The notes below the pieces were generated by a model. The model worked only from the letters and a program-made list of their open reading frames with translations, did not search any database and was not told the DNA's origin. A program made the translations under genes and the position numbers. Positions 9,019 through 24,434 of a DNA stretch of 64,000 nucleotides are shown piece after piece. This stretch comes from Planctomycetota bacterium (GTDB taxonomy: Bacteria > Planctomycetota > B15-G4): assembly GCA_038212275.1 (NCBI GenBank), contig JBBQUR010000002.1, positions 32,001 through 96,000 of the forward strand. Direction: 5' to 3'. Position 1 is the first letter of the stretch; every line of letters starts with the position of its first letter.

Positions 9019-11562
9019 CTACGGCGTGGTGGCCTGCAGCGCGTTGCTCAACGCCACCTGTTTCAAGGCGATGATGTCGCTGATCGCGTACTGGAAGTAG
9101 ACCGCCGTGCCCGGAGCAAAGCCCGCCGGCCACGTGATCGGCAACGAGAGCCCGCCCGCTGTCGACGTGACGAGCGGAACGGCCAGCAGCGACGGCAGGG
9201 GAATCAGCGAGCCGCCCTTGAACGGCGATGGCACCGACGACAGCGACATGACGAGAAGGCACGCGGCCCCAGGGACCGTGTTGCCGAGCGAGAGTTCGCA
9301 TGCGGACCCGGGCTCCAGCGTGCCGGTCCCGACGAGGATGGGCGTGCCACTGCCTGCCAGGCCATGGCCCAGGTTCTCCCACGGACTGGCCGGGCCGCCC
9401 TGATTGAGCAGCACGGTGGCATAGGCCGGCGCCGGGCCGGACAGTCCCCCCGTGTTCGCCACGGCCAGGTCGAGCCGGCCGTCACCGTCGAGGTCGCTGG
9501 CGAGGAGGTCCATCGGGCCGGGCCCCACGCCGTAGTGCGTCGCGGCACCGAGCGAGCCGTTGCCGAGCCCACGCAGCACCGAGACGGAGTACCCGGTCAG
9601 GTTCGCCACCGCGAGATCGACCGTGCCATCTCCGCTGAAGTCACCAGGCGCAACGGCGTAGGGGTGACCTCCCACGGGATAGCTGACCTTCGGACCGAAC
9701 TGCCCTCCGCCGGTACCAGGCAGCAACGAGACGGTGTCGCTGGCGTAGTTCACCAGCGCGAGGTCGAGCGTGCCGTTGCCGTCGAAGTCGGCCAGTGCGA
9801 CTGACCGCGGCTGGGACCCCGCGGCGTACTTGTTCACGTGGCCGAAGGCGCCGCCACCCAGACCCAGGAGCACCGCCACGGCATCCGGGCTGCTGCCCGA
9901 AGCGACGATGTCGAGCGTGCCGTCGCCATTGAGGTCGCCGACGGCGATCGTCCCCGGATGACACTCCACGCCGTGCGGGACGGCCGCACCGAACAACCCG
10001 CCGCCGAGGCCCGGAAGGACGAGCACGTTGTTGGAGGCGTAGCTCGCCACGGCCACATCGAGGTGGCCGTCACCGGTAAGGTCGGCGATGACGACCGACT
10101 GCGAGGCGCTGCCTGTGAAGTGGGTGACGGGCGCAACGAACGTGCCGTCGCCCAGGCCGAAGAGAACGGAGACCCGCATGGAGCCCTCGTTCGTCACGAC
10201 GAGGTCGAGCGTGCCGTTCTCGTCGAGATCGCCGGCGGCGATCGACGTCGGTGCAGGGCCCGCGCCGTAGCCCGCGACGCTTCCGAACACGCCGCCCCCC
10301 TGGCCCAGCAGCACGGCGACGGTGTCGAAGTCCGTGTCGGTGAGCGCCAGGTCGGGGCGGCCGTCCGCATTGAAGTCTCCCGCCGCGAGGGACGTGGGGC
10401 ACGTTCCCACCAGGTATTCCGCCGGTGCGGCGAACACTCCGTGGCCCTGGCCCAGGAGCACGGCGACCGCGTCCACGTCCGCGTCGGGCAACGCCATGTC
10501 GAGCTGGCCATCCGCGTTGAGGTCGCCCAGCGCGATGTCGGGAGTCCCGGAACCCACGTGATAGGTGGTCACGTTGCCGAGAAGGCCCCCGCCCACGCCG
10601 GGCATCACGATGACTGACTTCGTGCCGGCCATCGACACCACCGCGTCGAGCCGCCCGTCGCCATCGACGTCGCCGAGTGCGATCGCGCGCGGCTTGGACA
10701 GGATGGCGTACGTCTTCGGCGGGCCGAACGAGCCGCCGCCCTGACCCAGCAGCACCGAGATCGTGTTGTGCGGGCTGTCGGTCAAGGCCGCGTCGGGCAG
10801 GCCGTCGCCATCGAGGTCGCCGAGCGCGAGCCGTTCGGGCGTGCCTCCCGTGGCGGCGCTCGTCGCCGCGCCGAACGCTCCGCCGCCCAGGTTCAGCAGC
10901 ACGGAAAGAGAGCCCGACTTGTTGTTCGTCACCACGAGATCGGGCGCGCCGTCGCCATCGACGTCGGCCACGGCGACCGACCTCGGGGACATGCCCACCG
11001 GCAAGGGTGTCGCTGCGCCGAACGAGCCACCGCCGAGTCCCGTCAGCACGGTGATCGTGTCCGAGGAGCTGTTCGTCACGATGAGTTCGGGCTGGCCGTC
11101 GCCGCCGAGGTCCGCGGCCACGATGGACTGGGCAGTCTCGCCCGCGAAGAAGCTCGTCGCTGCGCCGAAGTGTCCCCCGCCCAGACCCAGCAGGACGGAC
11201 ACCGTGCCCGACTTGGTGTTCGCCACGGCGAGATCGGGGACGCCGTCGCCGCTCAGGTCGCTCACGGCGACCGAGGTCGGGTTGAGGCCCACGCCGTAAT
11301 CCGTCACGGCACCGAACGCACCGCCGCCCATGCTCAGCAGCACGGCCACCGTGCCGGGCGTCGTGGAGAGTTTCGGCTTCGTCACGACGAGGTCGAGCAG
11401 CCCATCGCCGTCGAGGTCAACCAGCGCGACGGACTCCGCGTCGCCGCCGACGGCCTGCAGGAGCGGGGCCGGGAACAACATCGCGGACTGCGATGTGGCG
11501 CGGGTCGCGGACAACGCAAGACACAAGGCGCCCCACACGACGGCGTGCCGATGAAGTGCCAT
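9019..11562 (-). CDS. Secreted FG-GAP/VCBS repeat protein with the shared C-terminal module
   Basis: Signal peptide; about 14 repeats of xGDLxGDGxxDL(A/V)V; C-terminal SPWENLGHGLAG...PFKGGSLIP...SNALQATTP. Confidence 0.9.
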   Translation of the reverse strand: MALHRHAVVWGALCLALSATRATSQSAMLFPAPLLQAVGGDAESVALVDLDGDGLLDLVVTKPKLSTTPGTVAVLLSMGGGAFGAVTDYGVGLNPTSVAVSDLSGDGVPDLAVANTKSGTVSVLLGLGGGHFGAATSFFAGETAQSIVAADLGGDGQPELIVTNSSSDTITVLTGLGGGSFGAATPLPVGMSPRSVAVADVDGDGAPDLVVTNNKSGSLSVLLNLGGGAFGAATSAATGGTPERLALGDLDGDGLPDAALTDSPHNTISVLLGQGGGSFGPPKTYAILSKPRAIALGDVDGDGRLDAVVSMAGTKSVIVMPGVGGGLLGNVTTYHVGSGTPDIALGDLNADGQLDMALPDADVDAVAVLLGQGHGVFAAPAEYLVGTCPTSLAAGDFNADGRPDLALTDTDFDTVAVLLGQGGGVFGSVAGYGAGPAPTSIAAGDLDENGTLDLVVTNEGSMRVSVLFGLGDGTFVAPVTHFTGSASQSVVIADLTGDGHLDVAVASYASNNVLVLPGLGGGLFGAAVPHGVECHPGTIAVGDLNGDGTLDIVASGSSPDAVAVLLGLGGGAFGHVNKYAAGSQPRSVALADFDGNGTLDLALVNYASDTVSLLPGTGGGQFGPKVSYPVGGHPYAVAPGDFSGDGTVDLAVANLTGYSVSVLRGLGNGSLGAATHYGVGPGPMDLLASDLDGDGRLDLAVANTGGLSGPAPAYATVLLNQGGPASPWENLGHGLAGSGTPILVGTGTLEPGSACELSLGNTVPGAACLLVMSLSSVPSPFKGGSLIPLPSLLAVPLVTSTAGGLSLPITWPAGFAPGTAVYFQYAISDIIALKQVALSNALQATTP

Positions 11563-11774
11563 GAGATCCCCTATTCTTTCCTGGGAAAGTTCCCTTGCCA
11601 CGGCCCGAACGATCCGAGGCATGTTAATCCGAACGGCCGGTGCTGACCATGTGGCGTCGACCCCGACCCGGTCGTGGCCGGCGGGCGCTCTGCCACGGTT
11701 ATCATCCCGCGGCTGTCGCCGACTCCCGCCACGCACGACTCCAACGACTCCCTCCACGCCCCGCGAGACCCCAC

Positions 11775-12257
11775 ATGAAGCTCCCCTTCTTCAGCCGCAA
11801 GCCGCCCGAGCTGCTCGCACCCGGCACTCCGGCGCCCGCCTTCGATGTGCTCGACCATCACGGCGCGCGCGTGCGGCTTGCCGACCTGCGCGGCCGGCGC
11901 CTGCTGCTGTGGTTCTATCCCAAGGCCAGCACCGGCGGCTGAACCGCGCAGGGCAAGGGGTTCCGTGATCGAATCCCCACCATCGGCGACAAGGGCCTCA
12001 TCCTCGGCGTGTCCTTCGACACGCCCGCGGACAACAAGACGTTCGCGGACGCGCAGGGCTTTCCCTTCCAGCTCCTGTGCGACACCGACAAGTCCATGAG
12101 CATCGCGTACCGTGCGTGCGCCGACCGCGGCGCGAAGTATCCCGACCGCATCACCTACATCATCGACGCCGAGGGCCGCATCGAGTCGGCCGAGCGCGTC
12201 GCGAACATCGCCGAGCACGTGGAGTCCGCAACGAAGCGGCTCTGCCGGCTCACCTGA
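11775..12257 (+). CDS. bcp: Peroxiredoxin (Bcp/PrxQ type), putative selenoprotein with TGA at the peroxidatic position
   Basis: MKLPFF...WFYPKASTGG-TGA(11940-11942)-TAQGKGFRD...ILGVSFD...FPFQLLCD...RITYIIDAEGRI is a single frame. TGA occupies the Cys site of PxxxTxGC. Confidence 0.85.
11957..11977 (+). promoter_or_regulatory. Candidate bacterial SECIS hairpin
   Basis: GGGGUUC-CGUGAUC-GAAUCCC: 7-bp stem starting 14 nt after the UGA, with G at loop position 2. Confidence 0.45.
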
Positions 12258-12355
12258 CCACGCACCTCACACCTGACATCACGCACCAGGCACCCGGCCT
12301 GCGGCCCCCGCGCCGCAGGCCGGCCACGCCTGCCGAACGCGCGACCCGCCGGAGC

Positions 12356-12862
12356 ATGACCATGACCATCACCACGCAATCGCTGCTCGACTTGCTCTCC
12401 GCGCCGCTGGCCGCAGCCGCGCAAGCCCACTGCAAGGACCCGGGCGGCGCGCGCGCCGTGCTGCACCGCCTCTATCCGCCGGAGGGCAAGGACAGCCAGG
12501 CTCTGCGCGCGGCGCTGCTCGAGGCCGTCGCGTCCGGCGTCATCTGCGACAAGGGCAAGGGCGACATCCGCTACAGCCGCCTGAGCAAGCCGGACGCGAG
12601 CACGCGCGACTTCTCCATCGACTTCGTGTGGATGACCGGCCCCGGCATCAACCACCGCCACCCGCAGGGCGAGATCAACCTCTGCTACGCCGTGGAGGGC
12701 GACCCGCGCTTCGACGGCCAGCCCGAGGGCTGGGTCGTGTTCCCGCCCGGCTCGGCGCACGTGCCGACGGTGACGGGCGGGCGCATGCTCATCGTTTACT
12801 TCCTGCCGCAGGGCGCCGTGGAGTGGATCACCGACGGGGCGAAGTCGCGGGCGGACGGGTGA
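12356..12862 (+). CDS. DUF4863-family (cupin-like) protein
   Basis: GINHRHPQGEINLC...RFDG.PEGWVVFPPGSAHVPTVTGGRMLIVYFLPQGAVEW. Start 12356 or 12362. Confidence 0.75.
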   Translation: MTMTITTQSLLDLLSAPLAAAAQAHCKDPGGARAVLHRLYPPEGKDSQALRAALLEAVASGVICDKGKGDIRYSRLSKPDASTRDFSIDFVWMTGPGINHRHPQGEINLCYAVEGDPRFDGQPEGWVVFPPGSAHVPTVTGGRMLIVYFLPQGAVEWITDGAKSRADG

Positions 12863-12876
12863 GGGGTTGGCGGTGG

Positions 12877-13113
12877 GGCTTGGTTCCGCTTGGGGGGTCC
12901 GGACGCTGCCGTGACGGCGAGACGAGGGGGAGTCGCGTGGCGCGGTGAGTGCGCCGTCGAGGGGGCGGCGGGCCGCCTCGGTCAACGACCCGCCATGCGA
13001 AGACCGGTGCCAAAGCGAGAGGCGCTCGTGGCGGTCGGAATCTAGCGGTCCGCCGCCCCCTCGCCGCGCACGCTGACGCACGTTTCTCCGCGCGGACGAG
13101 TGGCAGCGTCCGG
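12877..13113 (+). repeat. Structured intergenic element, copy A1
   Basis: Closing stem CCGGACGCTGCC (12899-12910) / GGCAGCGTCCGG (13102-13113); inner stem GGGGGCGGCGG / CCGCCGCCCCC; outer motif GGCTTGGTTCCGCTTG. Confidence 0.75.
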
Positions 13114-13390
13114 CCCTCGGCGCTCCGCCTCGCGACGATCGGGCGTCCGCTTCTACGCGTGTTGAACGAGAACCCGCAACGAGATGACGGCGAACTTGTG
13201 GTGCAACCAGGCATCGCCCGAAGCGTGTGAGAAGAAGCGCAGGCGCGTTCGTGCATCGTGCGGTGCGTCTCCCCGATCGTGCCGCGGCCACTCGTGTCGG
13301 GCGCGCTCGGTGTTCGTTCCCCAGCTTCGCCGTGCTTGCAGTTCCGTCGTGCGCATCGTTGAACTCGTGGCGGCGTCGAGGAGCGCGTGC

Positions 13391-13640
13391 GGCGGGGGTG
13401 CTGCTCGCTTCGTCCGACCGGAGACCCGTGCGTTGCCGTGCGCGGCGACGGGGCTGCGGGCGTCAAGATTAGGCCGCCGCATGCGGCCAGGGCGTTGGCG
13501 CGCCGTTTCCTCGGCGCGCCGTCTGACCGAAGACGTCCGCAGCCCCGTCGACGGCGCACTGCAATCCCAGCCCGACTCACCGACCTCACGCTGACCGTGC
13601 GAGCAGCACCCCCGCCCCCACAAGCGGAACAAAGCCGCCC
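13391..13640 (-). repeat. Structured intergenic element, copy A2 (inverted relative to A1)
   Basis: Perfect 18-bp closing stem 13391-13408 / 13599-13616; inner stem CGGGGCTGCGG / CCGCAGCCCCG; 19-mer at 13622-13640 identical to 24416-24434. Confidence 0.8.
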
Positions 13641-13641
13641 G

Positions 13642-14367
13642 TCAGAGCAGCGTGGCGCGCAACACCGCCAGCACGACGATGAGCGCCTCCAACCCGACCG
13701 TGCCCCGCTCGCGCCGCAGCACCTTGACCCACGGGTAGTCCTCCCGCGTGTCGGGGCGCGGAAGGCCGTCCGGGCGCGTGAGGCGCGGGATGAAGCGCGG
13801 CACGAGGCGGCAGTATTCCGGGTAGTCGTCGGCGTAGAGCTTGATGAGGATCGACTCCTCCCAGCGCACGACGAAGTGGTACCAGAGCATGGAGGACACG
13901 GCGGCCACGGCGCCGAACCACGCCGGGCCGAAGAGCAGGCACGCACCGGCGATGCCCGCGGTGTTCGCGACGTAGAGCGGGTTGCGCACCAGCCCGAACG
14001 GCCCGCCGGTGACGAGCACCTTCTTCTCCTGCGCCTTGCGCGCATGAACACGCGCCGCGCCGCGAATGTGCTTGGCGGACCAGAGCCTCCCGAAGAGGTG
14101 CACGCCCAGCAGCACGCCGCCGAGGATCATCGCATCGCGCTGCGCGCGCCCGACGGTCAGGCCCAGGACCACGGCCGTCGTGAGCAGCACCGGGTGGATC
14201 CAGCGCCGCAGCTCGAAGAGCCTGGCGCCCGCCGAACGGTCCAGCGGAAGTGCTGCCTCGCCATTCTCGTGGCCGGGGCTTGCTCCCGTCCGACCGGCGC
14301 CGGCCGACGCCACGGAGCCGGAAGCTCCCGCCTGCTGCCCGATGACCTGCGACTTGCCGCGCTCCAT
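13642..14367 (-). CDS. Isoprenylcysteine carboxyl methyltransferase / PEMT-family membrane methyltransferase
   Basis: LVTGGPFGLVRNPLY...EESIL...Y.EY...VPRFIP signature with TM helices. Confidence 0.85.
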   Translation of the reverse strand: MERGKSQVIGQQAGASGSVASAGAGRTGASPGHENGEAALPLDRSAGARLFELRRWIHPVLLTTAVVLGLTVGRAQRDAMILGGVLLGVHLFGRLWSAKHIRGAARVHARKAQEKKVLVTGGPFGLVRNPLYVANTAGIAGACLLFGPAWFGAVAAVSSMLWYHFVVRWEESILIKLYADDYPEYCRLVPRFIPRLTRPDGLPRPDTREDYPWVKVLRRERGTVGLEALIVVLAVLRATLL

Positions 14368-14392
14368 GCGCCGCCCAGTATGCCGGATCGCG

Positions 14393-15265
14393 TCAGCGCA
14401 AGCCCGCGCGGAGGACCCCGTCCAGCACGGCCAGCAACGCATACTTGCCGTGCGGCCTGTCGCGGCGCGCCTCGCGCCGACGGTCGAAGGCCCAGACGGC
14501 GCGCCAGACGGGCGACGGGTGGCGCAAGTAATGCGCGACGCTCGCCTGCAGTCGCGACCTGTCTGCGTAGCCCCGGACGAAGGCCTCCACGTCGCTGCGC
14601 AGGCGCTGCGCGTCGGACTTGCTGCAGCGCGCCAGCGAGCGCAGGCAGGCGGCGATTTCCTTGGCGAGCAGCGGCGACAGGTTGCGACGCGCGCGGAAGC
14701 TGTTCTCCAGGTCGAAGCTCGCGAATCGCAGCGCGCTCACCGGCCGCGAGGCGGCCTCCGTCCACGCGGCGCCGGCCGGCGCCGCCACGAGCACGTGTTG
14801 CACGCCTCCGTGCTCCTGGACGAGGGCCGCCTCGCCCAGCGACAGCGCACGGGCGTGGCGCTTCGCGGTGTCCGCTGCGAAGCGTTCGATGAGGGCCTCG
14901 CGCCGGGAGCGCGGCAGCGCAGGGTCGGCGAGCAGCGCGGAGAGCAGCGGACCGTCCACGAACTCGAGCACGAGGGTGCGCGGACCGGCGAGTTCCGGGT
15001 GACGCGCGGACAGCTCGGCCGGCACGTCGAAGCCCTGCTCGCGCCAGAGCGCCAGCAGGCGCGCCTCGGTGGCGCGTCGCGCCGCCGCCCGCGTGCCGGT
15101 TTTCCCGCCGCGCAGGCGGCTGGCCAGCTCGCGGCCCCATGCATGCAGCCAGGAACCGCGCTCCGCGTACAGCTTCTGCAGCACCGGGCCGTGCGCGGTC
15201 TGCACGCGCCAGATGCGGTTTCCGTCAAGCCGGAGCAGCTCGCGGGCTGCGGCCGCCTTCGGCAC
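14393..15265 (-). CDS. Protein-kinase-like (Kdo/WaaP-like) protein with a degenerate catalytic loop
   Basis: DGNRIWRV, VLQKLY, LVLEFVDG, LVQEHGGVQHVL, FDLE; paralog of the upstream gene. Confidence 0.6.
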   Translation of the reverse strand: MPKAAAARELLRLDGNRIWRVQTAHGPVLQKLYAERGSWLHAWGRELASRLRGGKTGTRAAARRATEARLLALWREQGFDVPAELSARHPELAGPRTLVLEFVDGPLLSALLADPALPRSRREALIERFAADTAKRHARALSLGEAALVQEHGGVQHVLVAAPAGAAWTEAASRPVSALRFASFDLENSFRARRNLSPLLAKEIAACLRSLARCSKSDAQRLRSDVEAFVRGYADRSRLQASVAHYLRHPSPVWRAVWAFDRRREARRDRPHGKYALLAVLDGVLRAGLR

Positions 15266-23685: not shown

Positions 23686-23908
23686 GCGCGGTTTCGCTGG
23701 GCCGGGCGCTGCCCCTTGGGGCGAGGTGAGAGGGAGTCGTGTGGAGCGGGGTGTGCGCGGCTCGGGAGGCTTGCCCGGCGCTGCGCCCCTTGGGCAACTG
23801 GACGCGTAAGGATTCCGGGAGCGGCGCCCTTCGCGCCGGACAAGACTCCCGATCCGCGCAAGCCGAGGTACGAGTCTCCGTGCCATGCGAAGCGGGGCAG
23901 CGCCCGGC
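23686..23908 (+). repeat. Structured intergenic element, copy B1
   Basis: Perfect 15-bp closing stem 23701-23715 / 23894-23908; inner stem TGCGCGG-C-TCGGGAG / CTCCCGA-T-CCGCGCA. Confidence 0.85.
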
Positions 23909-24199
23909 TGACGCTGCACCGCGCGTGAAGTGCGTCCTTGGTTTGGAACGCATCCTCCGCAACCCGATAGCGGCGTGGCCGCAACGCGGTCAAGCAACGC
24001 GTGATCGTGGATAGAGGAAGGGCGGGCGGCGTGGCGCAACTCACGCGCTTCGCGGCCCCGCACGAGTCGGCAGCGCCCTCGCCACGAGGGGCTGTCGTCA
24101 TTCGCTCTTGGCTGCTGACCTTGCCACGGAGCACTCCGGGCGCGCTCGCAGTCCAAGCGTTCAACTTCTCCAAGCGTGGGACGGCGTCGTGGAGCGCGA

Positions 24200-24434
24200 G
24201 CGCCGGGGGTGCTGCCCACCTCGCCCGGCACGGAAGTCCGTGTCTCGGCGGCGCGGATCGGGATGCTTGTCCGGCGCGAAAGGCGCCGCTCCCGGAATTC
24301 TGACGCGTCCTGTTGCCCCAGGGGCGCAGCGCCGGGCAAGCCTCCTGAGCCGCGCACACCCCGCACCACACGACTCCCTCTCACCTCGCCCCAAGGGGCA
24401 GCACCCCCGGCGCGGAAGCGGAACAAAGCCGCCC
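24200..24434 (-). repeat. Structured intergenic element, copy B2 (inverted relative to B1)
   Basis: Perfect 18-bp closing stem 24200-24217 / 24396-24413; 24251-24402 is the reverse complement of 23708-23859 with 9 mismatches in 152 nt (manual count). Confidence 0.88.

Follow-up and report, generated by a model that had tools for sequence, protein, structure and literature searches.

A diverged member of a long-hairpin repeat family between two convergent genes of a Planctomycetota bacterium: most likely a transposon-like element rather than a new RNA gene

Two convergent genes of a Planctomycetota bacterium are separated, stop codon to stop codon, by 779 nt that hold a pair of long palindromes, and the question raised by this locus (locus A) is whether the pair represents a new RNA gene or a transposon-like element. 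A first-pass annotation of the window (the whole stretch of 64,000 nt that was analysed) had described two diverged, oppositely oriented units in this gap and had offered both kinds of explanation: a new non-coding RNA or 3'-UTR motif family under selection for its structure, or a REPIN/MITE-like element mobilised in trans. Our analysis indicates that locus A is most likely a transposon-like element rather than a new RNA gene. The parts of the locus, in window coordinates, are the following.

12077 to 12862, + strand: PnbB-like gene (4-hydroxylaminobenzoate lyase family), left flank (open reading frame list; Pfam PF16155, E 9.8e-30)
12863 to 13641: intergenic gap of locus A, 779 nt, between the stops of the convergent PnbB-like and PEMT-like genes
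12877 to 12891, + strand: type-I outer end motif, GGCTTGGTTCCGCTT, heading arm A1 (from the sequence)
12896 to 13116, + strand: arm A1, a rod of ~220 nt (inverted repeats I11 and I5; fold z -5.8)
13117 to 13390, no strand assigned: middle segment of locus A (BLAST gives arm matches only; reading of the sequence)
13391 to 13616, - strand: arm A2, an inverted copy of A1 (inverted repeats I6 and I4; alignment; fold z -7.0)
13622 to 13636, - strand: outer end motif of arm A2, GGCTTTGTTCCGCTT on the - strand (from the sequence)
13642 to 14442, - strand: PEMT-like methyltransferase gene, right flank (open reading frame list; Pfam PF04191, E 8.7e-14)

The TGA stop codon of the PnbB-like gene lies at 12860-12862, 14 nt ahead of the outer motif of A1, and the stop of the PEMT-like gene, which is convergent with it, reads TCA at 13642-13644, 5 nt away from the outer motif of A2. 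This motif, GGCTT(G/T)GTTCCGCTT, was found at 12877-12891 and 13622-13636, that is, after each stop as had been described, and the same motif heads type-I arms throughout the genome. The whole of locus A was spanned by one 17-kb contig from the source run with zero differences. Just upstream of the PnbB-like gene lies a gene for a 912-aa FG-GAP repeat protein (PF13517, E 1.4e-101; window 9019-11757, - strand), homologues of the C-terminus of which occur near the PEMT-like gene in the relatives G007 and G002.

Alignment of A1 and A2 (~225 nt each) gave a mean column identity of 81%, which confirms the inverted pair of diverged units. Both folded into long rods, A1 at -149.8 kcal/mol (z -5.8) and A2 at -159.1 kcal/mol (z -7.0), and none of 200 shuffles folded as well as either. 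The closing stem of A1 comprises 15 nt with 93% complementarity (12896-12910 with 13102-13116) and that of A2 18 nt with 100% (13391-13408 with 13599-13616), while the inner stems comprise 22 nt with 91% (12955-12976 with 13045-13066 in A1; 13443-13464 with 13532-13553 in A2). All four closing-stem sequences quoted in the first-pass annotation do pair, two of them at locus A and the other two in a second copy in the window at 23688-24429, and the two double substitutions that it reported in the inner stem are real. Its claim of covarying stems was borne out in the A-type trio, composed of A1, A2 and a unit at C9:171100-171343, where 15 of the 84 predicted pairs had changed on both sides yet still paired; shuffle controls gave a mean of 6.5 such pairs, with 0/500 reaching 15, and sliding the partner gave 3-5. 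The observation is therefore confirmed as real and well beyond chance. Compensation inside a long DNA palindrome is, however, on its own no demonstration of selection on RNA; template switching at quasi-palindromes can yield compensated DNA changes without selection.

Further copies were sought across the source genome (G000), a 91% complete draft assembly of 4.65 Mb in 40 contigs with ~70% G+C, in which repeat copies at contig ends are incomplete. BLAST with A1 returned 20 matches, several of them at contig ends, and an iterated nhmmer search returned 90 hits on both strands, which merged into 49 units (36 of at least 200 nt) spread over 24 of the 40 contigs. The repeat contained 21 of the 80 contig ends, and of the 175 non-self matches given by megablast (300 nt or longer, identity of at least 85%), 157 lay within 700 nt of a unit. 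This hairpin repeat is thus the dominant dispersed repeat of the genome.

The units revealed a consistent architecture. Thirteen inverted pairs spanning 638-1006 nt had their arms pointing inward without exception (13/13), and one additional pair spanned 1679 nt. Alignment of nine composites showed a fixed order of type-II arm, middle and type-I arm, in which each arm (about 225-270 nt) is a long imperfect palindrome and the middle (170-750 nt) consists of conserved blocks adjoining each arm with large deletions between them. No conserved open reading frame was found in the composite middles. Composites of the main family were 74-91% alike end to end, though their flanking genes are unrelated, and all four solo arms proved to be truncated composites in which part of the middle was retained. 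The copy at 23688-24429 belongs to this main family and, like locus A, sits between convergent genes.

23688 to 24429, no strand assigned: second copy in the window, main family (nhmmer, as C2:55688-56429), with a type-II arm at 23688-23907 (+ strand), a middle, and a type-I arm at 24185-24429 (- strand)

A covariance model (R1) of a 158-nt core, with 158 positions and 44 pairs, gave the arms of this second copy scores of 164 and 153 bits. No other member of the family is as diverged as locus A: its two arms both belong to the type-I kind, and its likeness to the other copies is confined to the arms, the middle giving no BLAST match to main-family middles. By our own reading of the sequences, both edges of that middle nevertheless retain the inner-flank motif (...CTCGACGCCG...GTTGAAC) typical beside type-I arms. 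Together with the solo unit C9:171100-171343, A1 and A2 form an A-type subfamily that differs from the main family in the tip and the inner stem.

Three further features of the genome were recorded alongside the family. At G000:C24:18511-20197, next to murA, two inverted family arms surround a 403-aa open reading frame with a weak PD40 (beta-propeller) match, which is not a transposase by Pfam and is the lone exception to the non-coding middles; the arrangement may represent either a copy that carries cargo or two insertions nested in each other. A shorter palindromic repeat with the core ...GTGTGATGT.GAGGCACTGCCTC.ACATCACAC... occurs at G000:C16:64232-64430 and G000:C3:187937-188196, hence in at least two 3' intergenic regions, and may be a separate REP-like family. 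A near-perfect, unrelated rod of ~190 nt, missed by the family profile, lies in a 3' intergenic region at G000:C9:23772-24031 (- strand).

Gene context was evaluated with gene calls from our own simple codon-usage model, which is crude (3414 genes, 89% coding) and yielded 3374 gene gaps: 502 convergent (15%), 514 divergent (15%) and 2358 tandem (70%). The ten complete composites away from contig ends lay in six convergent, four tandem and no divergent gaps, and by our own arithmetic the probability of at least 6/10 convergent at a 15% background is ~0.001. Between convergent genes, the spacers left over on the two sides summed to 22-70 nt, matching the genome median for convergent spacers (59.5 nt) as an ordinary spacer that received an insertion would predict. 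Where the neighbouring genes are tandem, the element lay 7-17 nt from the upstream stop codon and 28-154 nt from the next start. The outer end lay 1-29 nt from a stop codon in 32 of the 49 units; a stop preceded the type-I anchor by 1-26 nt, with a mode of 5 nt, and at two sites the TGA overlapped the conserved end. G directly followed the stop at 24 of 32 sites, compared with 44% genome-wide. The idea that the outer motif is a general post-stop signal of this genome was rejected, since no such general motif was found; outside the units the motif occurred at scattered sites only, mostly in coding sequence. All four solo arms had the orientation of the gene whose stop codon lies 4-25 nt from them. 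At C24 one arm is antisense behind the gene preceding it, which fits the element acting as a unit better than each gene owning a hairpin.

Sites orthologous to locus A were compared across genera. Of the 15 other genomes of this taxonomic family, 6 contained the PEMT-like gene, and in three of those six, all from other genera, a PnbB-like gene was its convergent neighbour. The two genes overlapped by 44 nt in G001 and were separated by 22 nt in G004, neither of which has an insert, so the search for empty sites that had been suggested for this locus gave two. In G008, from another genus, the spacer was filled stop to stop by an unrelated element of ~748 nt. Contigs from a rhizosphere sample (another study's run) continued from the PnbB-like gene into A1, as far as 12975, and covered parts of the middle and of A2 with an identity of roughly 81-95%, which means that this site is occupied by the insert in a close relative too. 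Together with the empty orthologous sites, this relative indicates that the insert is derived and older than the split from it. Insertion differences between close strains, which would demonstrate movement directly, were not seen.

The element in G008 was found at G008:C45:176176-176930 and at least 32 more sites, and it is non-coding and strongly folded. At least 33 matches covered most of the query at 84-95% identity; its ends lay ~1-30 nt from stop codons, and 8 of 20 examined copies were clearly between convergent genes by a crude open reading frame call. Some copies showed a partial direct duplication of the right end (CCGACCTTGCAG...). Comparison with the hairpin family gave nothing by nhmmer and a best BLAST score of 36.8 bits against a null of 34.8 +/- 3.4. 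The PnbB/PEMT spacer has thus been occupied independently by two unrelated repeat families.

BLAST of a full composite of the hairpin family against 40 relatives gave just two chance-level matches of 46-49 nt, and a scan for a 27-nt core pattern gave 0 hits both in the genome contig collection and in the metagenome contig collection. A looser 19-nt A-type pattern was rejected, as it gave more than 119 chance hits in GC-rich genomes; its two Planctomycetota hits folded no better than shuffles (z -0.4 and -0.7). The covariance-model search proposed in the first-pass annotation was run with R1, which scored 70-177 bits at ~40 sense-strand sites of the own genome and 41-54 bits on the antisense strands, and which misses the A-type units (3/3). 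Against the 15 genomes of the same taxonomic family it gave a single marginal hit (E 7.9e-4) in G014, a single-copy 250-nt rod (z -6.8) at G014:C2:3002455-3002735 (- strand). This rod begins right after a stop codon between convergent genes and has a 14-nt motif in common with the 3' arm of the family, which is suggestive, though not proof, of a relationship. The 14-nt motif was found in 27 of 41 relatives of the order; among 30 screened loci (28 in relatives) a rod was present at G014 only, and the two other strong folds examined were coding. PnbB-like orthologues at three loci in metagenome contigs were discarded as candidate empty sites, the one that was checked having a different neighbour gene.

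Comparison with 4227 Rfam families gave no match at gathering score in the 64-kb window, and thus the match to a known RNA family that would count against a new one did not appear; hits at E values up to 1 were sub-threshold and concerned plant miRNA-precursor models and one IRES model. There was no match in 72,556 plasmid records, and no description of the hairpin repeat family turned up in the papers searched.

An enzyme that might have mobilised the family was sought in the same assembly. No Y1_Tnp/RAYT (PF01797) match was found in the 91% complete genome, while the same search hit 6 of 14 control genomes; with no such match and with units of ~225 nt as opposed to 20-40 nt, a REPIN mobilised by a linked RAYT transposase, as one form of the first-pass proposal had it, is unsupported. 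Three weak DDE_Tnp_1 matches and one rve match occurred in the assembly, none of them near a unit. The DDE_Tnp_1 matches are carried by a two-copy repeat of 1.55 kb (93% identity; G000:C13:27658-29207 and G000:C5:3883-5430), the only other long dispersed repeat, the ends of which are unlike those of the hairpin family and begin with GTAAGCG, which we take to be typical of the IS66 family. A parent insertion sequence with the same ends as the hairpin family was not found in this 91% complete assembly, a kind of assembly in which repeats are often left unassembled. The target duplications sought at the composites were likewise not seen: at 10/10 no shared flank word exceeded chance (the longest were 3-7 nt and averaged 4.7, compared with 5.7 for the null, the exact ends being unmapped), in a comparison that is blind to duplications of 2-4 nt or to old, eroded ones.

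What was observed directly comprises the family with its architecture, copy number and gene context, and the empty orthologous sites in other genera. We consider it probable, at roughly 0.7, that locus A is one copy, old and diverged, of a MITE/BIME-like repeat, non-autonomous and without coding capacity, that is specific to this lineage and was spread in trans, and the MITE-like half of the first-pass proposal fits the dispersed copies, their decay by deletion, the solo arms and the empty orthologous sites. Such an element would consist of two inverted arms flanking a middle that decays by deletion, would have spread through the genome by means of a putative mobilising enzyme acting in trans, and would persist where copies are harmless, beside stop codons and chiefly in short convergent spacers. 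We infer that the family spread by transposition and that its position reflects tolerance rather than targeting. Transcripts entering from either flanking gene would likely, on the predicted folds, end in a very stable hairpin, which by analogy with REP/BIME elements in E. coli could block read-through or 3' decay.

The alternative that survives best, although we regard it as unlikely, is that the arms are 3'-UTR modules selected by the host, which are kept because they terminate convergent transcription or insulate it, and because they shield the 3' end of the mRNA; it is compatible with a mobile origin. The proximity of the outer ends to stop codons in 32/49 units and the direction of the solo arms agree with it, as does a marked strand asymmetry. 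The strand read inward from the flanking gene folded better than its complement in 35/36 units, by a mean of 21.7 kcal/mol, and contained 9.6 G-U pairs per unit as against 2.6 on the complement. This strand had a GC skew of +0.12 and an AT skew of -0.15, whereas 716 control 3' intergenic regions were near zero, and 120 folded control regions showed no strand asymmetry (mean -0.01, sd 14.3, half each way). However, the inverted-pair architecture fixes both arms inward, so that the asymmetry is largely one inherited trait. Mismatches under a fold without G-U pairs comprised 82 G-T versus 20 A-C, as a preference for wobble pairs would give, but also 124 G-G versus 7 C-C, and because the G-G excess exceeds the G-T excess, general G-richness is indicated rather than such a preference.

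Conservation and substitution patterns bear on the same alternative. Within the main family, the inner stem was the best conserved part, at 95-96% identity, followed by the tip and mid stems at 75-78% and the outer stems at 62-68%, an unevenness that is not predicted by plain neutral decay after insertion; the conserved inner stem could be either a binding site of the mobilising enzyme or a part with a working role in the host. The compensated changes among the three old copies likewise speak for host selection. Against it, derived changes within the type-I and type-II subfamilies comprised 50 G-U-forming and 44 A-C-forming events (p 0.61), and 258 pair-breaking events compared with 19 that kept the pair. 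A first count of 29 G-U versus 14 A-C pair types on the 36-unit alignment fell in this within-subfamily test. RNAalifold on all 36 units did not recover the rod, as the subfamilies do not align structurally.

As for termination, no U-tract or T-run follows either rod of locus A directly, which distinguishes them from Rho-independent terminators, and a terminator scan found one small site, not the rod, against 0.6 expected. In E. coli a REP is reported to act as terminator and stabiliser (bioRxiv 10.64898/2026.03.23.713779), which favours a host role for the arms. The antisense arm at C24 and the two genera that do with PnbB/PEMT spacers of -44 and 22 nt count against one. A single-strand role for the arms is possible on the predicted folds, but the present evidence falls short of ongoing selection on an RNA fold: of the proposal of a new non-coding RNA or 3'-UTR motif under structural selection, the covariation among three old copies stands, whereas recent substitutions show no favour for G-U pairs.

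Much less probable than host-selected modules is that the rods are single-stranded DNA hairpin substrates of a strand-specific recombinase or HUH enzyme, attC-like or REPIN-like, which places them at gene ends. The strand asymmetry with its G-T and conserved unpaired G-G positions would suit such substrates, as would the absence of a visible target duplication and the ends that abut or overlap stops (modal distance 5 nt, TGA overlap at two sites), which can be likened to attC sites abutting the open reading frames of cassettes. However, no Y1_Tnp/RAYT match was found, the copies are dispersed and not in tandem cassette arrays as integron attC sites are, and the favoured strands of the two arms lie on opposite DNA strands, in which they differ from IS200/IS605 ends. 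Chance palindromes or an assembly artefact are highly improbable, for although high-GC DNA generally folds well and one rhizosphere contig has a strand-switch joint between A1 and A2, no shuffle (0/200) folded as well, the 17-kb source-run contig spans the stretch without differences, and dozens of copies lie in unique contexts.

A transposon-like element of this kind was compared with known repeats. Foldback transposons of eukaryotes also have very long self-complementary inverted ends around a variable middle, but their ends consist of tandem subrepeats, and no relationship is implied. MITEs usually measure a few hundred bp at most, and the element here is larger (0.64-1.0 kb). Each of its terminal repeats is itself a long palindrome, which further distinguishes it from MITEs; neither a target duplication nor a parent insertion sequence was found for it in the assembly. 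It resembles the hairpin-forming MITEs (Correia, ERIC, QMITE, RUP/SPRITE) in being non-coding, multi-copy and intergenic, with terminal inverted repeats and very stable predicted transcript folds, but it is GC-rich in a GC-rich genome, whereas MITEs are described as typically AT-rich (PMC10969869). The same review describes MITE transcripts as stable stem-loops and possible terminators (PMC10969869).

To BIME and REP elements the family is similar in its palindromic units in alternating orientation with conserved linkers, its location at gene 3' ends and its species specificity. REPs lie mostly between convergent and same-direction open reading frames, and some REP classes are reported to lack a dedicated transposase (PMC3733652); the composites agree in position (10/10 convergent or tandem, 0 divergent). 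They differ in size, with units of about 225-270 nt compared with 20-40 nt for REPs (PMC3733652), in having two units per element around a middle of 170-750 nt, and in the absence of a RAYT match. The 748-nt repeat of G008 is of similar size, non-coding, strongly folded, stop-adjacent and located in the same PnbB/PEMT spacer, but it has no detectable sequence likeness, and the much greater uniformity of its copies suggests that it spread recently. In working terms, REP/BIME elements and hairpin-forming MITEs are thus the nearest systems, although membership in either fails on defining points.

The family accounts for a quarter of the contig breaks and most of the long intergenic gaps in this genome, and annotators should mask it ahead of any calling of new RNA genes or promoters there. 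Among repeats of the REP/BIME and MITE kinds it stands out by its unusually large size, and such elements are little described in this phylum. One convergent gene pair, without an insert in two genera but with unrelated repeats between its genes in two others, provides a natural test of whether convergent spacers are merely safe landing sites or whether long hairpins are useful to the host. REPs between convergent genes are reported to accompany higher expression of both genes (bioRxiv 10.64898/2026.03.23.713779). A tentative extension, which we rate as rather doubtful, is that genera of this Planctomycetota family each filled convergent spacers, the PnbB/PEMT spacer among them, with unrelated structured non-coding repeats of ~0.75 kb that, should more than tolerance be involved, serve as giant analogues of REP/BIME elements. 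If so, the well-conserved inner stem would be their working part, and the repeats would be mobile 3'-end modules used by the host to insulate convergent transcription and to protect mRNA ends.
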